Below, piece after piece: positions 1 through 19,288 of a stretch of DNA of 20,717 nt. Source of the DNA: a virus; UHGV virus genome UHGV-1961940; one strand, given 5' to 3'. The notes beneath the pieces were generated by a model that worked only from the letters and a program-made list of their open reading frames with translations, searched no databases and was not told the origin of the DNA. A program made the translations under genes and the position numbers. Numbering within the stretch: position 1 is the first letter of the stretch; every line of letters starts with the position of its first letter.

Positions 1-792
1 CAGGAAGAAACTGGCAATCTGAGTTTTCGCGCTGGCAATCTGGGATTTTCCATCTTCTAATTTTTTCTTTGCATCTGCAAGTTGTGTTTTCCCGTCTTCC
101 AGTTTCTTCCTGGCATCTTCTAATTGTTTCTTACCATCTTTATATTGTTTCTTTCCGTCCTTAAGTTTCTTTTCACCGTCATCCAGTTCTTTCTTCGCAT
201 CTGCAAGTTTCTCATTGGCTTCTTTTTTGCCGTCTTCCAGTTCTTTCTTTGCATCTGCAAGCTTTTCATTGGCTTCATCCACTACTTCATCATAACGGAT
301 CTGACAACGTTCTTCCTCGATTCCCTTTACGCGTTCCTGCACTCTTTCTATCAGGCTTTCATAAGCATCCGTATAACTGATCAGATTTTGTGCCCCATGA
401 ACCTGCACATAAATCTGTGTAAATACTTCCTGATCAAAATTCTCCGGGAGTACATAAGCAAACCCGTTAACTTCACCTGAACCAAGAGTTGTATTTCCAC
501 GATTATAAGATATATAAAGAGGGCTCTCACCAATACCTACAACTGTATAATCTACATTCTGCAAAAGCTTGCTGTCCCCGTCCTGCTTCAGTGTAATCTG
601 ATCTCCGACTTCGTAACTGTTATTCTCGGCAAATATATAATCCAGAAATATCTCGCCACTCTTCTCGGGAATTCTTCCTTCCATAACAGTGATCTGGTTT
701 ACTGTTTCATTCACTGATTCCACGGAGCACTTATCGCAAACCTCAACGACATTGATAGTACCATAGTATTTATAAAGAATATAGCCAACGTA
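1..792 (-). pseudogene. Fragment of an FtsX/MacB-family ABC transporter permease (periplasmic core domain plus XXXLXXG heptad-repeat coiled-coil region). It is 5'-truncated by an in-frame TGA at 793-795, and its 3' end runs off the window start. An internal ATG at 682-684 could allow expression of a truncated product.
   Basis: Translating the minus strand by hand gives ...YKYYGTINVVEVCDKCSVESVNETVNQITVMEGRIPEKSGEIFLDYIFAENNSYEVGDQITLKQDGDSKLLQNVDYTVVGIGESPLYISYNRGNTTLGSGEVNGFAYVLPENFDQEVFTQIYVQV...EANEKLADAKKELEDGKKEANEKLADAKKELDDGEKKLKDGKKQYKDGKKQLEDARKKLEDGKTQLADAKKKLEDGKSQIASAKTQIASFFL. The frame is open down to nucleotide 1. This is the architecture of the large extracellular domain of Firmicutes FtsX-like permeases with LxxG heptads. 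There is no N-terminal TM segment and no SD in front of the ATG at 684. Confidence 0.5.
12..285 (-). repeat. Imperfect intragenic tandem repeats with a 21/42-nt period (heptad units) inside the permease fragment.
   Basis: ctggcaatctg occurs at 11-21 and 32-42. (tt)ctttctt(t/c)gcatctgcaag occurs at about 61-81, 187-207 and 241-261. ccgtcttccagtt occurs at 92-104 and 230-242. These encode repeated LADAKKELEDGKK-type heptads. Confidence 0.7.
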
Positions 793-11951: not shown

Positions 11952-13136
11952 TTAAGCTTTAGCCAAAATGGCGCTAAACTCTTCACCAAACTCTTTTACA
12001 ATCTTCATCAGGTTTGGGTATGCTTTGATCAGCTGAGCAACAATCTTGTCACGCCCTTTACCGATAAGCAAGGCATTTCCTAAGGCATTAGGTTTCATCA
12101 TCGCCATAAAGACTGAGAATACAAAATCTCGGTTCTCGTCCTTGAAGTTTTCCCAAAGGAAATCGAGGAAGTTTGCCACGCAGCTGACAAGATCTTCGTC
12201 TGAGATACTTGCATTTTCCATCATATTGCGAATAGCGATACAACCTTCAGATCCAAGAATCCACAAAATGTCTGGCTGCTTAGGACCTACGTATTCTTTG
12301 CAGCCACCTGCCATAATCCGACCGATTTCCGGTAAATTACGTTTCTTGGTGTGGTAAGTCCAGATCTCTACCGCTGCAGTGTGACCAATAGCACCTTGTA
12401 GAAGAACACGGGCCATAGCGTCAGAAATAATACCGCTGTCAAAATCGTGCAAGATGTCAGATGCAGCAACCCAAGATCGTGGTGTGGCAAAAGATGGACA
12501 ATTAATCTCAGCCATAGCCTCATAATTATCAATAGCTGATGGAACTCTTTTCAGATACCCAATTACAGAGGAGTGAACCCCGTTGAGGAATGCGTAGTCC
12601 TCAATAAACACCTCTGCATTGCTTGTAACCTCTACAATGATAAAACGGTTAGCCAGAGGGGCTTCGAGCGCCGAAAGAACCGCACCATCTGTAGAACGGT
12701 TACCCGCAGCCACAAAAACAGAACCCTTAGGGAATGCATAGGTGCCGCACTTGTGGTCAAGCATAATTTGCATTGCAACCTTTTGCAGGTAGTTATCTGC
12801 ATGAGTGAGCTCATCCAGAAAGATAATTCCGCTCCAGTCAGGATCCGCAGGCCAAAATTCTGGAATTGCAAACACTGTACGTGTAGTTCCATCCGCTTCT
12901 ACAGGGATAGGTAGCCCAGATAAGTCGGCAGGATCTTTATCTGACAGTCGCACGTCAACAAGGTTGTCATCTCGCTCACCGAACATATTATCAGCGATCT
13001 GCTTCATCACCTGGCTTTTACCCACACCCATTGGTCCCAAAATTAGGACAGATCGGCTATGACGTTGGGCAAACTGAATAATAGCTGGCAACTCACGGAC
13101 AGTGATTTGACCACTTTCGAATACGTTTCTTGACAT
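11952..13136 (-). CDS. MoxR/CbbQ/NorQ/CobS-like AAA+ ATPase (AAA_5 type).
   Basis: Walker A is LGPMGVGKSQ and Walker B is IIFLDELTHAD. The sensor/arginine-finger region is VFVAAGNRS...APLANRF. The start overlaps the upstream stop as TAATG. Confidence 0.85.
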   Translation of the reverse strand: MSRNVFESGQITVRELPAIIQFAQRHSRSVLILGPMGVGKSQVMKQIADNMFGERDDNLVDVRLSDKDPADLSGLPIPVEADGTTRTVFAIPEFWPADPDWSGIIFLDELTHADNYLQKVAMQIMLDHKCGTYAFPKGSVFVAAGNRSTDGAVLSALEAPLANRFIIVEVTSNAEVFIEDYAFLNGVHSSVIGYLKRVPSAIDNYEAMAEINCPSFATPRSWVAASDILHDFDSGIISDAMARVLLQGAIGHTAAVEIWTYHTKKRNLPEIGRIMAGGCKEYVGPKQPDILWILGSEGCIAIRNMMENASISDEDLVSCVANFLDFLWENFKDENRDFVFSVFMAMMKPNALGNALLIGKGRDKIVAQLIKAYPNLMKIVKEFGEEFSAILAKA

Positions 13137-14459: not shown

Positions 14460-14738
14460 TTAGGCAATTGTCATTTTACATTCTTGAAATTTTAACACAA
14501 GACGGTAATTGTGTCTAGTGTCTAAAAAGATTTTTTCAACCATCAGGCACACGGTATAACCGTCCATCTTGTTGACAACAAAATCTCCAGGATGAGGGAG
14601 GATGTCTCCCGGATTGGGGAAACATAGTCCACTCAGAAAGGCATCGTCAGTGGTGGACTTAATAGATTTCCACACACTGTCTGCCTGAACATGTTCACCG
14701 ACGTAATATACATTACCACATGCCTTCATCATAGTCAA
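14460..14738 (-). CDS. Hypothetical protein, 92 aa.
   Basis: ORF whose start overlaps the stop of the upstream 299-aa gene. Confidence 0.55.
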   Translation of the reverse strand: MTMMKACGNVYYVGEHVQADSVWKSIKSTTDDAFLSGLCFPNPGDILPHPGDFVVNKMDGYTVCLMVEKIFLDTRHNYRLVLKFQECKMTIA

Positions 14739-15634
14739 ACCCTCGCATAAATTAAACTTGTATCAGTATACTTCTTTAATGGGTAAATATCCTGTCCATA
14801 GATGCAATCATTAAACACCTCATCTACCCAAAGGCTACACTTATATCCCATCATTTCTAAAACACCCATCTCTTCTTCGGTAAACTTATCACCGCTCTTG
14901 CAAGATGTCAATACCTCATTCTGAACTCTTGCTACCTCGAAGCGGTTATTGGCAATATCGCTATTGGCGATCAAATACTCACCTAGAGGGTGTGCGGCAT
15001 TAAAGATGCACAGTGGACGGCTGACGTAATAGTCTCCAGGTGTATAAAAATTGTTGAGGTCTTTCACTAGAACATTCTTATCAGTCACTTCATTTATAAC
15101 ATCATGCATATCGCACATCTTTATATGTTTGAGGATTCCATCCCCCATCACAAAATAAAAACTTGCTGAGACACTTTCGGCATAGATCTTACTAGATCCG
15201 TTGTAGTTGTATTTTACTCGGATGCTAACGGGGGTTTTTCCTGTCGCGTTAGCCATCATCCAAAGAAATGGCAGCTCATACTTCTCCTCTGAGGAAACAA
15301 AAGGTGAGGTAGCCAGAGATCGAAAACCTCCAGAGAAGTTGAAAGTTACAGAACCGCTCCGGCGGTATGATACCGCGTATTCTACTTTTATATCGACATA
15401 CCCATTGGAATAGGTGTGTCCTTCATTATCTAAATATGTCCACTTATCAGACCCAGATACCAATCTACGCTCAATAACCTTCATCACTATAGGAATTAAT
15501 GGGTTGGTACAAACCGCTTTTGAAGTAGCTTTATCATCTAAAGCCTCGTAAATTGCAGAAAGGATGTCCCCAGCTGAAAGATTGGTTGTTATGTCCTGTT
15601 TCCACCGCGTACTAAAACTGTTAAGATTTGCCAT
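14735..15634 (-). CDS. Hypothetical protein, 299 aa. It is the first gene of the leftward operon.
   Basis: An AGGAG SD lies 9 nt upstream of the ATG at 15634. The gene is immediately downstream of the predicted leftward promoter. Confidence 0.65.
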   Translation of the reverse strand: MANLNSFSTRWKQDITTNLSAGDILSAIYEALDDKATSKAVCTNPLIPIVMKVIERRLVSGSDKWTYLDNEGHTYSNGYVDIKVEYAVSYRRSGSVTFNFSGGFRSLATSPFVSSEEKYELPFLWMMANATGKTPVSIRVKYNYNGSSKIYAESVSASFYFVMGDGILKHIKMCDMHDVINEVTDKNVLVKDLNNFYTPGDYYVSRPLCIFNAAHPLGEYLIANSDIANNRFEVARVQNEVLTSCKSGDKFTEEEMGVLEMMGYKCSLWVDEVFNDCIYGQDIYPLKKYTDTSLIYARV

Positions 15635-15674
15635 AAGTAAGTGCTCCTATGTTAGTTTTCTTTCGAATGGGTGC

Positions 15675-15703
15675 ACTATATTGTGGAGTTAGAGTAAAGT
15701 CAA
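15675..15703 (-). promoter_or_regulatory. Sigma70/SigA-type promoter for the leftward operon: TTGACT, 17 nt, TATAGT.
   Basis: On the minus strand, the -35 TTGACT is the revcomp of 15698-15703, the spacer is 17 nt, and the -10 TATAGT is the revcomp of 15675-15680. It lies about 40 nt upstream of the ATG at 15634. Confidence 0.5.
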
Positions 15704-15721
15704 CACGTTTTTGATGTTGAC
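15699..15721. promoter_or_regulatory. Candidate operator: perfect inverted repeat GTCAACA-N9-TGTTGAC. Each arm contains a -35 hexamer of one of the two divergent promoters.
   Basis: GTCAACA is at 15699-15705 and TGTTGAC at 15715-15721. The left arm overlaps the minus-strand TTGACT. The right arm overlaps the plus-strand TTGACA at 15717-15722. Confidence 0.4.
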
Positions 15722-16754
15722 ATCTGTTGAGACAATTGATACGATTTCTTCACTTACAGAGCACGAGAGACGACTCATGAATCTTGAAAAATATTATACA
15801 CCAGAAGAGTTAGAGCGCTTGCTCAAAAAATATAGACGCAAACAGAATAACGCACGGAAACGAGATATAGAGTTCGACCTGTCATGGGAAGAATACCTCC
15901 TATTTGGTAAAAAACTTTTAGGAGATGGAGTATGCGACTATACCCTTATACCTTTTGACATGCACACAGATGAAAACGGGCTGGGGAATCCTTTCTACCC
16001 ATCCCTGGAGCGGATAGATGATGAAGGTCCTTATGCGGTTGATAACTGTTGTGTGGTGGGATTGAGATGCAACTCTCTAAAGGACTGTCTGGTAGATAAA
16101 AAGACTGCAGTCTTGATTAAAGACGAAACTGATCGAAAAATTGTCCAGCAGATGATGCTCCACCTGAGCGAAGAGCGTATGGAGAAATTGAAAGGTGATT
16201 ATACTTTTGAAGATTTCATCTTGCAATATGGAACGGAAGAGGATAAACTAGCACTCTTTGACGAAGAAGAGGAGGAAGATATGCTACCGATGTCTAAAGT
16301 TACTTATCGTGCACCCAAGAAGCACATTTCCGACATTGTAAACGAGCCTATCACAGAAGAGATTGAAGAAATGACGCAACAGGTGCATGAAGAGGAAAAA
16401 GAGACTCAGGAGGTCGAAGAGGAGCTTACAGAAGAGGTTCCTGCACTACCTGATGATGTTGAGATTGCCAAAGCTTACACTTTCTATTGTCAAACGTTCT
16501 ACGATGTAGGTATGAAAGTTGATCTGTCGTTCAGCCAATTTAAGAGTTCGTATATTCGCAAATGCTGTGCTTTAACTGGTGAACGTCTTGGAGCTGGACT
16601 TAAACCCCTGTTGGTGACCGACTGGAATAAAGGTTTCACTAAAGGAAACTTTATGGTAGTATCTCCAATTATGAAGAAAGCTATGACAGATCTTATGAAG
16701 ACCACCCGCATGACAATGACCGAGTTGGCAGGTATTTTCAAACACGTTAAATAA
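15711..16754 (+). CDS. Protein with two tandem, degenerate Endo VII-like (HNH-fold, recombination endonuclease VII family) modules. The start is uncertain: TTG 15711 or ATG 15714 have no SD; the ATG at 15777 has a weak GAGAGA SD. An internal in-frame start at 16281/16291 with a GAGGAGG SD could give a nested C-terminal isoform.
   Basis: Module 1 is ARKRDIEFDLSWEEYLLFGKKLLGDGVCDYTLIPFDMHTDENG...LRCNSL. This resembles Endo VII family RKxYGIxxEEYxxLxxxQGGxCAICG...VDHDHxTG...LLCxxCN. Module 2 is IRKCCALTGERLGAGLKPLLVTDWNKGFTKGNFMVVSP, with DWNK in place of DHDH. The assignment is by remembered motif pattern, not by search. Confidence 0.5.
   Translation: MMLTSVETIDTISSLTEHERRLMNLEKYYTPEELERLLKKYRRKQNNARKRDIEFDLSWEEYLLFGKKLLGDGVCDYTLIPFDMHTDENGLGNPFYPSLERIDDEGPYAVDNCCVVGLRCNSLKDCLVDKKTAVLIKDETDRKIVQQMMLHLSEERMEKLKGDYTFEDFILQYGTEEDKLALFDEEEEEDMLPMSKVTYRAPKKHISDIVNEPITEEIEEMTQQVHEEEKETQEVEEELTEEVPALPDDVEIAKAYTFYCQTFYDVGMKVDLSFSQFKSSYIRKCCALTGERLGAGLKPLLVTDWNKGFTKGNFMVVSPIMKKAMTDLMKTTRMTMTELAGIFKHVK
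15717..15745 (+). promoter_or_regulatory. Candidate rightward promoter: TTGACA, 17 nt, TACGAT.
   Basis: The -35 is a perfect TTGACA at 15717-15722. The -10-like TACGAT at 15740-15745 has the TAnnnT pattern. If this promoter is used, the rightward gene more likely starts at the ATG at 15777. Confidence 0.3.
16285..16313 (+). repeat. Copy 2 of the perfect 29-nt start-codon repeat (MSKVTYRA), inside the Endo VII-like ORF directly after a GAGGAGG motif.
   Basis: Identical to the revcomp of 14423-14451. Confidence 0.85.
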
Positions 16755-16758
16755 TGAC

Positions 16759-16775
16759 AGGGGCCAATGGCCCCT
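16759..16775 (+). promoter_or_regulatory. GC-rich hairpin AGGGGCC-AAT-GGCCCCT just after the Endo VII-like gene stop. It sequesters the ATG at 16767.
   Basis: 7-bp stem with a 3-nt loop, followed by TCTGGAGTTTTAATG. It may act as an attenuator or terminator and argues for the downstream start at 16788. Confidence 0.3.
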
Positions 16776-18248
16776 TCTGGAGTTTTAATGGATAGCAGAA
16801 GTTCAGAAATCATTGCCTCGCAGAAAGATGATGCCCTGAGAATGTTGCAGGCTGCACGTATGTATCTCCTTGAAAAGCTGCCGTTTTATGGCACACTACT
16901 GTCAGGGTTGCAGTTCGTAGAAAACCACACATGGTGCTCCACCATGGCAACCGACCATAAACGCATCTATTACAGTCCTGAGTTCATTATGGGATTGGCT
17001 GATGAACGCAAGGCTATTCTTAAGGCTTCTCTAACTGACGAGCAGTTTGAGATGGCTGAAGTTTTCTATTCTCCAAAATCTGTGAAAGAGGTGGCCTTCC
17101 TTCTGTCACATGAGGTGGGGCATATTATCTGTGATCACCTAGTCCGTGGTAAAAGCTTTGAGCCGGAACTGTTCAATATTGCTTGTGATCACGTTATCAA
17201 CACAGGCCTTGTGGTTGACTTTAGCAAACCTCCTTGTGTTTTCTTCCCGAAGGGGAAAAGCACTACGTTCATGAAAGGTAAGCCTTTTGGCTTCTTAGCC
17301 AGCTGCTACTGCGACATGAAGTTTCATGGATGGATTGCTGAGAACGTTTATGCAGTTCTTGATAAGCAAAGAGATCAGAATAACGGTAAAAGTAAGAACG
17401 GTAAAGGTGAGAACTCTCAAAGTGATAAGCGACAAACCGATGATCACATGAGTGGGAACGGTGGCACCAGTGATAATCTTGGAAAGGCTATGGGGTATGA
17501 TCAGCCACAACCTGTAATCAGCCAATCTGATAAAGATCAGGCCATGCAGGACTCTGGTGATATGCTGGAGGCAGCAATGCAAGCGTCCGGAGGCCGTTGC
17601 CCTGAGGCGGTGCGTGAGTTTGTCAAGAACAGAGGTAAGCCTGTAATCAACTATATAGACATCATTAAGCAACGTATGTTGTCTAAAAGAAAGGCCGAAC
17701 TGACCTACAGAAAACCTGGTCGCCGATCTGGGTCTTTGACCAGCACAATGCGAAAAGTTGGGGCTATAAACAAGAACCAGCACGTTATTGTTCCTGGTCG
17801 TAATCCGGAAAACACTATAGATATTGTGGTGGCTTTAGACGTTTCTGGCTCGATCTCTCAAAGAACTTTAAAGAAAATGTTCAATGAAATCACCGGATTG
17901 TGCAATCTGTATAAAGAGTTTAAGGTTACAATGTTCTGTTGGTCAACTGAGGTTGGAGAGGTTAAAGTATACACTCGCGGCAACATAGACGAGATGGTCA
18001 ACTATGAGGTCCACTCAACATGGGGCACAACAGCTGCTTGCGTGTTCGAGTATCTGGATGCCAACATACCTAATGCAAAAGATGTCATCGTCCTGACCGA
18101 CCTATACTTTGAGCATAACTTTGAACAAAAGGTTGTTGACAACAAGTGGAAAAAGTACGATACTCTATGGGTCCTCACTGAGGGGTATAATAAAAATTAT
18201 ATCCCGAGCTTTGGGAAAACTGTGGAATTAATCGAGTACGCTAAGTAA
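16767..18248 (+). CDS. Zincin-like putative metallopeptidase domain (HExxH) fused to a von Willebrand factor A (VWA) domain. Probable partner of the MoxR-like ATPase. The ATG at 16788 (MDSRSSEI, GGAG SD) is an alternative start.
   Basis: The N-terminal domain contains HEVGHIICDH. The MIDAS motif is IVVALDVSGSIS (DxSGS). This matches DUF2201_N plus VWA (CoxE/NorD/CobT-like) architecture. Confidence 0.8.
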   Translation: MAPSGVLMDSRSSEIIASQKDDALRMLQAARMYLLEKLPFYGTLLSGLQFVENHTWCSTMATDHKRIYYSPEFIMGLADERKAILKASLTDEQFEMAEVFYSPKSVKEVAFLLSHEVGHIICDHLVRGKSFEPELFNIACDHVINTGLVVDFSKPPCVFFPKGKSTTFMKGKPFGFLASCYCDMKFHGWIAENVYAVLDKQRDQNNGKSKNGKGENSQSDKRQTDDHMSGNGGTSDNLGKAMGYDQPQPVISQSDKDQAMQDSGDMLEAAMQASGGRCPEAVREFVKNRGKPVINYIDIIKQRMLSKRKAELTYRKPGRRSGSLTSTMRKVGAINKNQHVIVPGRNPENTIDIVVALDVSGSISQRTLKKMFNEITGLCNLYKEFKVTMFCWSTEVGEVKVYTRGNIDEMVNYEVHSTWGTTAACVFEYLDANIPNAKDVIVLTDLYFEHNFEQKVVDNKWKKYDTLWVLTEGYNKNYIPSFGKTVELIEYAK

Positions 18249-18263
18249 GAGAGGAGGTTATTT

Positions 18264-18527
18264 ATGGCAACAGAGTTAAAATTTGCATCAAACCGTAAAA
18301 CTAAGAAGTATCTGTCCTCAGTAGCTCCAGGCACTGTGGTGATGTTTGTTGATGAACTTGGGGATGTGAATACAGCACTTGTTGTAAAATCACATCCTGC
18401 AAACATATATGTTGGGGTATTTGACCTGTTCAGAAAGGTGTTTGTAGAACTGCCTCACAGTTTGGTTGTTACAGAAATGGATGCCTGCATAGAAATTCTT
18501 GGCGAAGTTATGGTGGAGGAACAATAA
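18264..18527 (+). CDS. Small protein, 87 aa. Paralog 1 of a four-member tandem family.
   Basis: MATELKFASNRKTKKYLSSVAPGTVV...VTEMDACIEILGE. A GAGGAGG SD is present. It aligns clearly with paralog 2. Confidence 0.65.
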   Translation: MATELKFASNRKTKKYLSSVAPGTVVMFVDELGDVNTALVVKSHPANIYVGVFDLFRKVFVELPHSLVVTEMDACIEILGEVMVEEQ

Positions 18528-18790
18528 TGGCTACCAGCATTGTATTCAATTCTAAGGTGAAGAACAAAAAGCGTGCAGACAGTTTTCCGTGTGGGACCGT
18601 GGTAAGTTGCGACGGAGACGGCATTCAAAACATAGTTATGATTGTCAAAACAGGAGAACATTGTGTGTGGGGGTTCGATTTAGAAAATAATGAGTTGTAC
18701 GATCTGCCGCCAAACATGAAAGTTACAGAGCTTGACACCAAAATTACCATCCTTGGAGAGACAAGCTATTCAAAAGAAGGAGGAGAATAA
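18527..18790 (+). CDS. Small protein, 87 aa. Paralog 2.
   Basis: MATSIVFNSKVKNKKRADSFPCGTVV...VTELDTKITILGE. The start is TAATG-coupled to paralog 1. Confidence 0.65.
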   Translation: MATSIVFNSKVKNKKRADSFPCGTVVSCDGDGIQNIVMIVKTGEHCVWGFDLENNELYDLPPNMKVTELDTKITILGETSYSKEGGE

Positions 18791-19053
18791 TGACCACAAA
18801 AATCACTATCGCAGAACCGAAAGCTAACACTCAGCCTATCGAAAAGTTTAAGTACGGTGAGGTGGTAACATTCACACCAGATAATGAAGATGCTAAGATT
18901 TTCGCAATGGTCACAGCTGAGTGGATGTGTGACAACACCACACAGGTTCTGCGTTTTGACACCTATCTTACCGATGAAATCAGGAACGACAAGATTGTGA
19001 CTGGTGTGGATACTGAGATTGTTTTCTACAAGAGCTTTTTAGAGGGTTTCTGA
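18790..19053 (+). CDS. Small protein, 87 aa. Paralog 3 (more diverged).
   Basis: MTTKITIAEPKANTQPIEKFKYGEVVTF...KIFAMVTAE. TAATG-coupled. GAAGGAGGAG upstream. Confidence 0.6.
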   Translation: MTTKITIAEPKANTQPIEKFKYGEVVTFTPDNEDAKIFAMVTAEWMCDNTTQVLRFDTYLTDEIRNDKIVTGVDTEIVFYKSFLEGF

Positions 19054-19054
19054 T

Positions 19055-19288
19055 ATGGCAAAAATTAGAAAATTATCTAGCAATCAGGTTGTGAAAGACT
19101 TCGAATCTGGAGAGATTCTTTATGTTCGTGATGCAGATGACGAAGGTGAAGATCTCGTTATGTTGGTGGGGCACGCTGAGGACGGATGCATCCAAGCTGT
19201 TTTTCTTGAAACAGCTATGGTGCACTGGATAGAGCTGGACCTGAAAGCACGAAAACCTAAAGCAGAAATCCTGATTTACGAAGATTAA
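19055..19288 (+). CDS. Small protein, 77 aa. Paralog 4 (most diverged).
   Basis: MAKIRKLSSNQVVKDFESGEILYVRDADDEGEDLVMLVGHAE. The start lies 1 nt after the stop of paralog 3. Confidence 0.55.
   Translation: MAKIRKLSSNQVVKDFESGEILYVRDADDEGEDLVMLVGHAEDGCIQAVFLETAMVHWIELDLKARKPKAEILIYED

Follow-up and report, generated by a model that had tools for sequence, protein, structure and literature searches.

The window analyzed in this study, a 20,717-nucleotide (nt) stretch of the virus genome UHGV-1961940, carries a gene of the rV5 gp11 type at positions 15777–16754, the product of which is a homologue of T4 Srd and comprises two tandem modules predicted to adopt the nuclease fold of PacI. Positions 15000–18300 were 99.8% identical to the genomes of Escherichia phages Murica and LL12 and other Vequintavirus (rV5-like) phages. 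Neither the gene nor its homology to Srd is new, and both are widely annotated: rV5 gp11 was called "probably a Srd homolog" on the basis of PSI-BLAST (Kropinski et al. 2013; PMC3606486), and the matching records name the gene 'anti-sigma factor', 'HNH endonuclease', 'anti-termination protein', or 'hypothetical protein'. The gene and the elements around it are as follows (aa, amino acids).

15699–15721, no strand assigned: palindrome GTCAACACGTTTTTGATGTTGAC, the arms of which hold the −35 hexamers of two divergent promoters
15717–15745, plus strand: sigma-70-like promoter of the rightward unit (TTGACA at 15717–15722, 17 nt, TACGAT at 15740–15745)
15765–15769, plus strand: Shine-Dalgarno-like GAGAG, 7 nt upstream of ATG 15777
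15777–16754, plus strand: coding sequence of the rV5 gp11-type Srd homologue (PHROG 3118), 325 aa plus stop
16759–16775, plus strand: GC-rich hairpin AGGGGCC-AAT-GGCCCCT, located after the stop codon (16754) and before the GGAG ribosome-binding site (16779–16782) that serves the next gene

The open reading frame (ORF) called mechanically extends from TTG 15711 to 16754 (347 aa). The initial annotation of this DNA had taken over both its frame and its start; the frame was retained, whereas the start was not. The GenBank/RefSeq records of the 99.8%-identical phages begin the gene at ATG 15777 (325 aa), and the annotations of phages Murica and LL12 place a ribosome-binding site at the position equivalent to 15765–15769. 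The rightward promoter, with 10 of 12 consensus matches plus a TG extension, sits within the 22-codon N-terminal extension, and because it lies downstream of TTG 15711, this codon cannot be the start if the promoter is used. Homologues at 58–68% identity either lack this extension or carry a different one. The starts at TTG 15711 and ATG 15714 that appear in metagenome gene calls (346–347 aa) were ruled out by the promoter position and the non-conserved extension. Residues are numbered here on the 325-aa form, to which 22 is added to obtain the numbers of the initial annotation.

As previously noted for this DNA, the gene is the first of the rightward unit. It is transcribed from a putative sigma-70-type promoter, and its homologue in Proteus phage Mydo likewise comes first in a divergent unit. 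In the leftward promoter opposite, the −35 box is TTGACT, read leftward from 15703, which also favors the 325-aa form of the gene. The palindrome is composed of the back-to-back −35 hexamers (GTCAA and TTGAC) and two flanking bases; since its arms are the two divergent −35 boxes, it is adequately explained without a role as an operator or terminator. The palindrome was rejected as a terminator, the terminator-like call being on the minus strand with weak pairing only. The hairpin at 16759–16775, which carries a terminator annotation in phage Murica, may be a partial terminator or attenuator and could leave gp11 partly monocistronic.

An independent start for the second module within a 29-nt cassette had also been proposed. 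Only 9 nt (TGATGTTGA) are common to 15712 and 16454, the ATG and TTG codons at 16454 are out of frame with the ORF and lie within a 40-aa alternative-frame ORF, and a direct-repeat search found no repeat family touching the ORF; the proposal was dropped.

Two homologous modules and their fold

The protein has the following parts; the per-residue confidence of an AlphaFold2 model is given as the predicted local distance difference test (pLDDT).

15798–16112, plus strand: N module, predicted zinc-less PacI-type His-Me finger (residues 8–112)
15999–16082, plus strand: beta-beta-alpha core of the N module (residues 75–102; P-S-L-E78-R79-I-D81...G-P-Y86...N90...C98-N99-S-L-K102)
16113–16277, plus strand: helical extension of the N domain (residues 113–167), four helices with pLDDT >93, partly common to T4 Srd
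16278–16442, plus strand: acidic linker, predicted to be disordered (residues 168–222), with a net charge of −12 and pLDDT of ~50, poorly conserved
16443–16751, plus strand: C module, apparent degenerate duplicate of the N module (residues 223–325), with the same predicted fold and net basic (+6)

Relatives of the protein were found in 764 representative clusters by an exhaustive hidden Markov model (HMM) search, and among the 150 relatives listed, most were 230–350 aa long with two separate matching stretches, corresponding to the N and C modules. The family alignment was built from 115 relatives, mostly 20–40% identical to the protein. Using these family members, hhalign aligned the N module (8–112) with the C module (222–325) over 80 columns with a probability of 97.9% (E 5.5e-13). 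The same comparison on only seven close homologues gave a probability of <1%, as that alignment was too shallow, and the result was reversed at 115 sequences. An HMM of the C module alone matched the single canonical module of three unrelated proteins (P0100, P0125, and P0151) with 29–35 bits, at the same residues as the N-module HMM. The AlphaFold2 model (pLDDT 88.6 overall and >90 in both modules) repeats the same order of elements in each module: a long helix, a strand, a short helix, a hairpin, and the beta-beta-alpha element. The hhalign probability, the HMM cross-matches, the alignment of T4 Srd to both modules, and the repeated element order indicate that the two modules are a homologous tandem duplication in one chain, and the description of two related modules in one ORF in the initial annotation was thus borne out.

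Among the seven close homologues, the most distant ones were 70–75% identical in the C module, compared with 65–70% in the N module; in remote homologues, the corresponding values were 25% and 31%. The linker (168–222) was not conserved, and the C module is basic while the rest of the protein is acidic. Judged from sequence comparison, the C module is not decaying, and the purifying selection on it appears to be as strong as that on the N module. Stand-alone C-module genes were considered and rejected, since the C-only proteins in the database are cut by contig ends, as for P0038, which ends at the end of its contig.

At the level of the fold, the protein belongs to the His-Me finger/HNH superfamily, both modules being predicted to have the HNH nuclease fold of the PacI type. 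Neither PF02945, the model suggested earlier as a check, nor any other Pfam HNH model matched the whole protein or either module (E ≤10) or the 115 relatives (E ≤0.1), and the Pfam and NCBIfam searches yielded nothing meaningful for the protein, its modules, the 115 relatives, T4 Srd, or nine proteins with one or two canonical modules. The protein matched its own family, PHROG 3118 ('HNH endonuclease'), at 1.5e-112. The N module alone matched PHROG 3322 ('endonuclease') at 1e-13 and PHROG 1035 ('endonuclease VII') at about 5e-11 to 1e-10. The Srd families PHROG 4592 (3e-15) and PHROG 1400 (3e-10) were also matched by the N module only, with matches reaching into the helical extension. PHROG 1035 bridges the N module (5e-11), T4 Srd (9e-8), PacI (1e-6), and T4 Endo VII (4e-6).

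A profile of 33 N-type modules had PacI as its sole significant match among 177,635 PDB sequences (HMMER E 0.002, 21 bits). The hhalign probability of the N-module profile was 94.3% (E 1e-7) against PacI and 8.4% against T4 Endo VII, and a PacI fragment matched PHROG 3118 at 0.0013. PDB sequence searches with a shallow full-length profile and with the C-module profile gave no match, and the C module is tied to PacI only via the N module and the predicted fold. Sequence comparison thus points to PacI as the closest characterized relative. The two modules had been assigned to the Endo VII family: the HNH fold stands, and the term 'Endo VII-like' is acceptable at the superfamily level, via PHROG 1035, but not at the family level. 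T4 Endo VII (gp49; PF02945; PHROG 423) has a His general base, a Cys4 zinc site, and a domain-swapped junction-resolving dimer, features that are not evident here. The CxxC...CxxC zinc site around the beta-beta-alpha element is missing, and the position of the catalytic His in the D-H motif of strand 1 is occupied by R79 in the N module (115/115) and V280 in the C module.

The N module shares with the PacI-like enzymes (group 20) its profile similarity, a putative omega-loop Tyr in place of the His, and metal-ligand positions of the Asp/Asn type, and it lacks their two structural Cys4 zinc sites. The protein is best described from its sequence as a divergent zinc-less relative of PacI and not as a PacI orthologue. 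In place of the two Cys4 zinc sites of PacI, each module here conserves a single Cys; PacI is a one-domain homodimer, and here two copies lie in one chain, with the second degenerate. PacI is a bacterial sequence-specific restriction enzyme, whereas the present protein is a phage early protein.

Counterparts of the PacI active site

PacI, the classic exception among HNH enzymes, is described as an active enzyme without a catalytic His, in which Arg occupies the His position, an omega-loop Tyr acts as the base or nucleophile, and a single metal ion is bound by one Asp and one Asn (PMC5714182, PMC4081073). In the HMMER and hhalign alignments, V-D92-R93-S-D95...G-Y100...N104...C112-N113-R-I-K116 of PacI was in register with L-E78-R79-I-D81...P-Y86...N90...C98-N99-S-L-K102 of the N module. 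E78 and D81 align to D92, reportedly the metal-ligand Asp of PacI, and D95, and N99 aligns to N113; Y86 aligns to Y100, the one Tyr that PacI has between its two strands. R79, Y86, and N90 were each invariant in the N modules of the 115 relatives. Position 78 was occupied by E (101 relatives) or D (14) and position 99 by N (110) or H (5), with nothing else at either position, the latter being the classic alternation of the HNH/HNN metal ligand; K102 was present in 112 of the 115. The N module therefore appears to keep counterparts of all PacI active-site residues, namely, E78/D81, R79 at the His position, Y86, the structural N90, N99, and K102.

The C module has replacements at most of these positions (E78 to L279, R79 to V280, Y86 to F287, N99 to K300, and K102 to M303), and the same columns were occupied across the family by F/Y/L/W at 279, V/I/L at 280, V/I/F/L at 287, Q/G/A/K at 300, and L/M at 303. 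It retains only C264, T267, G268, D282, and N291. By alignment, the C copy has lost all active-site counterparts except the structural Asn and one Asp, as was predicted from the first inspection of the DNA. As the C module keeps the fold without these residues, their invariance in the N module reflects function rather than stability.

The initial annotation was also right that the catalytic His and the zinc Cys are replaced, as the His and three of the four zinc Cys are gone from both modules. It went on to treat the N module as inactive for this reason, which does not follow: PacI is active with the same His-to-Arg replacement, so the loss of the His and of the zinc Cys does not show that the N module is inactive.

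The single zinc-type Cys found family-wide in the C module is C264. C53 (15933–15935) and C264 (16566–16568) lie in C-x-Y/L-T-G hairpins and were present in 113 and 107 of the 115 relatives, respectively. Extra cysteines (C91, C92, C98, and C104) were observed in the rV5 subgroup.

Genomic context and neighboring genes

The gene has a fixed syntenic place, first of the rightward unit, in Vequintavirus and Mydovirus, and in 117 of the 119 matching records the match spanned at least 80% of the query, with nothing to suggest a patchy distribution. Its neighbors are genes of an early type, including rIIA, rIIB, a Dda-like helicase, a primase/helicase, and a MoxR-like ATPase.

The next gene (16767/16788–18248, plus strand; rV5 gp12 type) encodes a protein with a DUF2201_N putative metallopeptidase domain (4e-28) and a DUF2201 VWA-like domain (3e-11), and the 'HNH endonuclease' label given to this gene type in RefSeq and PHROG 1314 is a mis-annotation. 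The MoxR-like ATPase, the usual partner of the DUF2201 protein, is encoded at 11955–13136 (minus strand). The order of a gp11-like gene followed by a DUF2201 gene was also found in the metagenome contig L004 and in Proteus phage Mydo. Further downstream, 18264–18527 and 18527–18790 (plus strand) encode adjacent 87-aa paralogues (39% identity, E 1.5e-12); the small genes at 18790–19053 and 19055–19288 look alike by eye but not by BLASTP, and together these may form a tandem array of early genes.

The divergent neighbor (14738–15634, minus strand; 299 aa) belongs to PHROG 12338 and is named 'putative alpha 1-3 fucosyltransferase' in several records; it had no Pfam match at E ≤0.001. Among the public records matching 15000–18300, sixteen carry the name 'Campylobacter phage' and list C. 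jejuni as the host, although they are 90–99.7% identical to these E. coli rV5-like phages; they are probably mislabelled or contaminants. Elsewhere in the window, imperfect direct repeats at 44–276 (53-nt units, spaced 21/42/54 nt from start to start, 60–89% identity) overlap an ORF at 124–480 (plus strand) and suggest a repetitive, coiled-coil-like coding region on one strand.

T4 Srd and the role of the protein

The sequence of T4 Srd (NP_049634) was taken from NC_000866. Its residues 4–133 matched the N module (BLASTP E 3e-7, residues 8–143 of the protein), and its residues 30–80 matched the C module (E 9e-4); it scored 61 bits against the N-module HMM and matched PHROG 3118 at 1.5e-16. T4 Srd conserves L-E-R-F-D, G-Y, G-N, and Y-N, while its residues 100–249 had no match to the C-module HMM or the linker HMM. 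The similarity is significant and is not colinear over the full length, so that the homology with T4 Srd, as judged from the sequences, is limited to the PacI-like domain and some of the helical extension and does not span the whole protein. T4 Srd has one module, and the present protein has two; both are products of early genes of large lytic coliphages. According to papers citing Qi et al. 2015, T4 Srd binds RNase E in its N-terminal half and promotes the decay of host mRNA, possibly by protein–protein contact. Within the family, RNase E binding and stimulation are known only for T4 Srd, and in papers of 2020 and 2026, T4 Srd still figures only as an RNase E binding partner.

We favor, with moderate confidence, the explanation that the gene product is a T4 Srd-family protein that acts early in host takeover and is built on a duplicated zinc-less PacI-type His-Me finger, in which the N copy probably cleaves, the C copy is its partner, and the outcome is early host shut-off. 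The N copy, with its conserved site, would still bind a divalent metal and the phosphodiester of a nucleic acid, and probably cleaves by a tyrosine-assisted mechanism of the PacI type through Y86. The C module is without catalytic residues and as conserved as the N module, and is therefore probably a non-catalytic partner; it would stand in for the other subunit of the PacI homodimer, holding either the substrate or a host protein, with the acidic linker serving as a tether between the copies. By analogy with T4 Srd, the role would be early host shut-off by a faster breakdown of host RNA, or possibly of DNA, either unaided or with RNase E, rather than sigma-factor mimicry or operator binding.

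An active and a degenerate copy of one nuclease domain are combined in the restriction enzyme Sau3AI, which has the PD-(D/E)XK fold. The likeness lies in a catalytic copy accompanied by a decayed one that is retained for binding or regulation, though in a different fold. Inactive His-Me fingers reused for binding are described in Smad MH1 and in the nuclease-like domain of Enpp (PMC5714182); these kept the fold after catalytic loss, as here, but are single inactive domains of eukaryotic proteins.

Several points weigh against a catalytic N copy with a C partner. Both Cys4 zinc sites of PacI are missing, and among the ligands C63, C66, C109, and C112, only the counterpart C53 is found family-wide; in this protein, only C53 and C98 remain, with C98 belonging to the rV5 subgroup, and the ligand positions other than C53 are T56, G95, and 98, the last occupied by A/V/S/C in the family. 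The geometry of the site rests on the AlphaFold2 model, and with a predicted template modeling (pTM) score of 0.59, the placement of the N module relative to the C module is not fixed by this model. T4 Srd has no C module, which makes the transfer of function uncertain. Its effect requires RNase E, and it is described only as an activator of that enzyme, which fits a non-catalytic adaptor too. Finally, the case for catalysis in the family comes from sequence and structure prediction.

The main rival explanation is such an adaptor or activator of RNase E, in which the PacI-like fold is a scaffold, its conserved polar residues contact RNase E or RNA but do not cut, and host mRNA decay is accelerated by such protein or RNA contacts alone. 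This is a possible account, though one to which we give a minor share of belief. It agrees with the dependence of the T4 Srd effect on RNase E and the reported binding to the N-terminal half of that enzyme, with the restriction of the region common to Srd to the N module and helical extension, with the loss of the PacI zinc sites, and with the known reuse of inactive His-Me fingers for binding. However, the residues that never vary are exactly the catalytic and metal set of PacI, with only E/D and N/H swaps, which would be unusual for a pure protein-binding surface, and T4 Srd lacks the C module and is not colinear with the present protein.

The initial annotation considered both modules dead relics of a resolvase that bind DNA as a regulator, with the palindrome at 15699–15721 in the promoter of their own gene as the target. 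The gene is the first of its operon, the palindrome overlaps the promoter region, neither the canonical His nor a Cys4 site is present, the C module is basic, and Smad MH1 provides a precedent. Still, we regard this explanation as improbable. The palindrome arms are simply the divergent −35 hexamers, the N module has a complete PacI-type site, homologues occur in phages with other promoter arrangements (Aeromonas phiA047 and T4), the only studied homologue, T4 Srd, acts via RNase E, and no link was found between the family and operator binding.

It is very unlikely that the gene is a selfish mobile element encoding a free-standing homing HNH endonuclease. Such genes are numerous in phages, and RefSeq and PHROG 3118 carry the label 'HNH endonuclease', but the gene is conserved like a core early gene, in a fixed syntenic position and without the patchiness of a mobile element, and no NUMOD, AP2, or other DNA-targeting module was found with Pfam and NCBIfam. 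Least credible of all is an anti-sigma factor or a decoy of sigma-70 or sigma-S redirecting RNA polymerase, a label borne by many GenBank records and by PHROGs 1400 and 4592 and in line with the role in the early-to-late switch proposed in the rV5 paper (PMC3606486), since the label traces to a similarity that was postulated between T4 Srd and RpoD, no sigma-70 region or other Pfam family matched the protein (E ≤10), the 115 relatives (E ≤0.1), or T4 Srd (E ≤1), no sigma-70 or anti-sigma model matched in NCBIfam either, the predicted fold is that of an HNH nuclease, and the Srd experiments point to RNase E.

The preference for a live N copy and a non-catalytic C copy can be extended, far more tentatively, to the whole family. 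The Srd proteins, T4 Srd included, could be tyrosine-dependent metal nucleases of the PacI type, or catalytic phosphodiester-binding enzymes, that attack host RNA or DNA themselves, for instance by introducing initial cuts for RNase E to build on, and would then be neither sigma decoys nor passive activators of RNase E; the rV5 lineage would have an intramolecular pseudo-dimer with one live and one dead site. If this is true, the pseudo-dimer would be a single-strand cutter.

A literature search retrieved no paper linking Srd to the HNH or PacI fold and, in the literature searched, no description of a tandem pair of active and degenerate His-Me fingers. The internal duplication, the PacI-type Srd domain with an intact Tyr/metal site, and the live-plus-dead arrangement appear to be new. 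The domain has no Pfam model despite its presence in 764 representative clusters, and the 'anti-sigma' label is without sequence or fold support. The live-plus-dead tandem is a natural experiment that separates the needs of the fold from the needs of the function; if the N module were inactive after all, the protein would represent another nuclease fold recruited for regulation. The sequences suggest that Srd-family members may have an enzymatic function and may not be decoys of sigma factors. Recognition of the Srd domain as a PacI-type His-Me finger turns its mechanism into a hypothesis that can be tested by point mutants (Y86F, R79A, N99A, and the T4 Srd equivalents), which provides a direct and cheap experimental handle on how Srd works.

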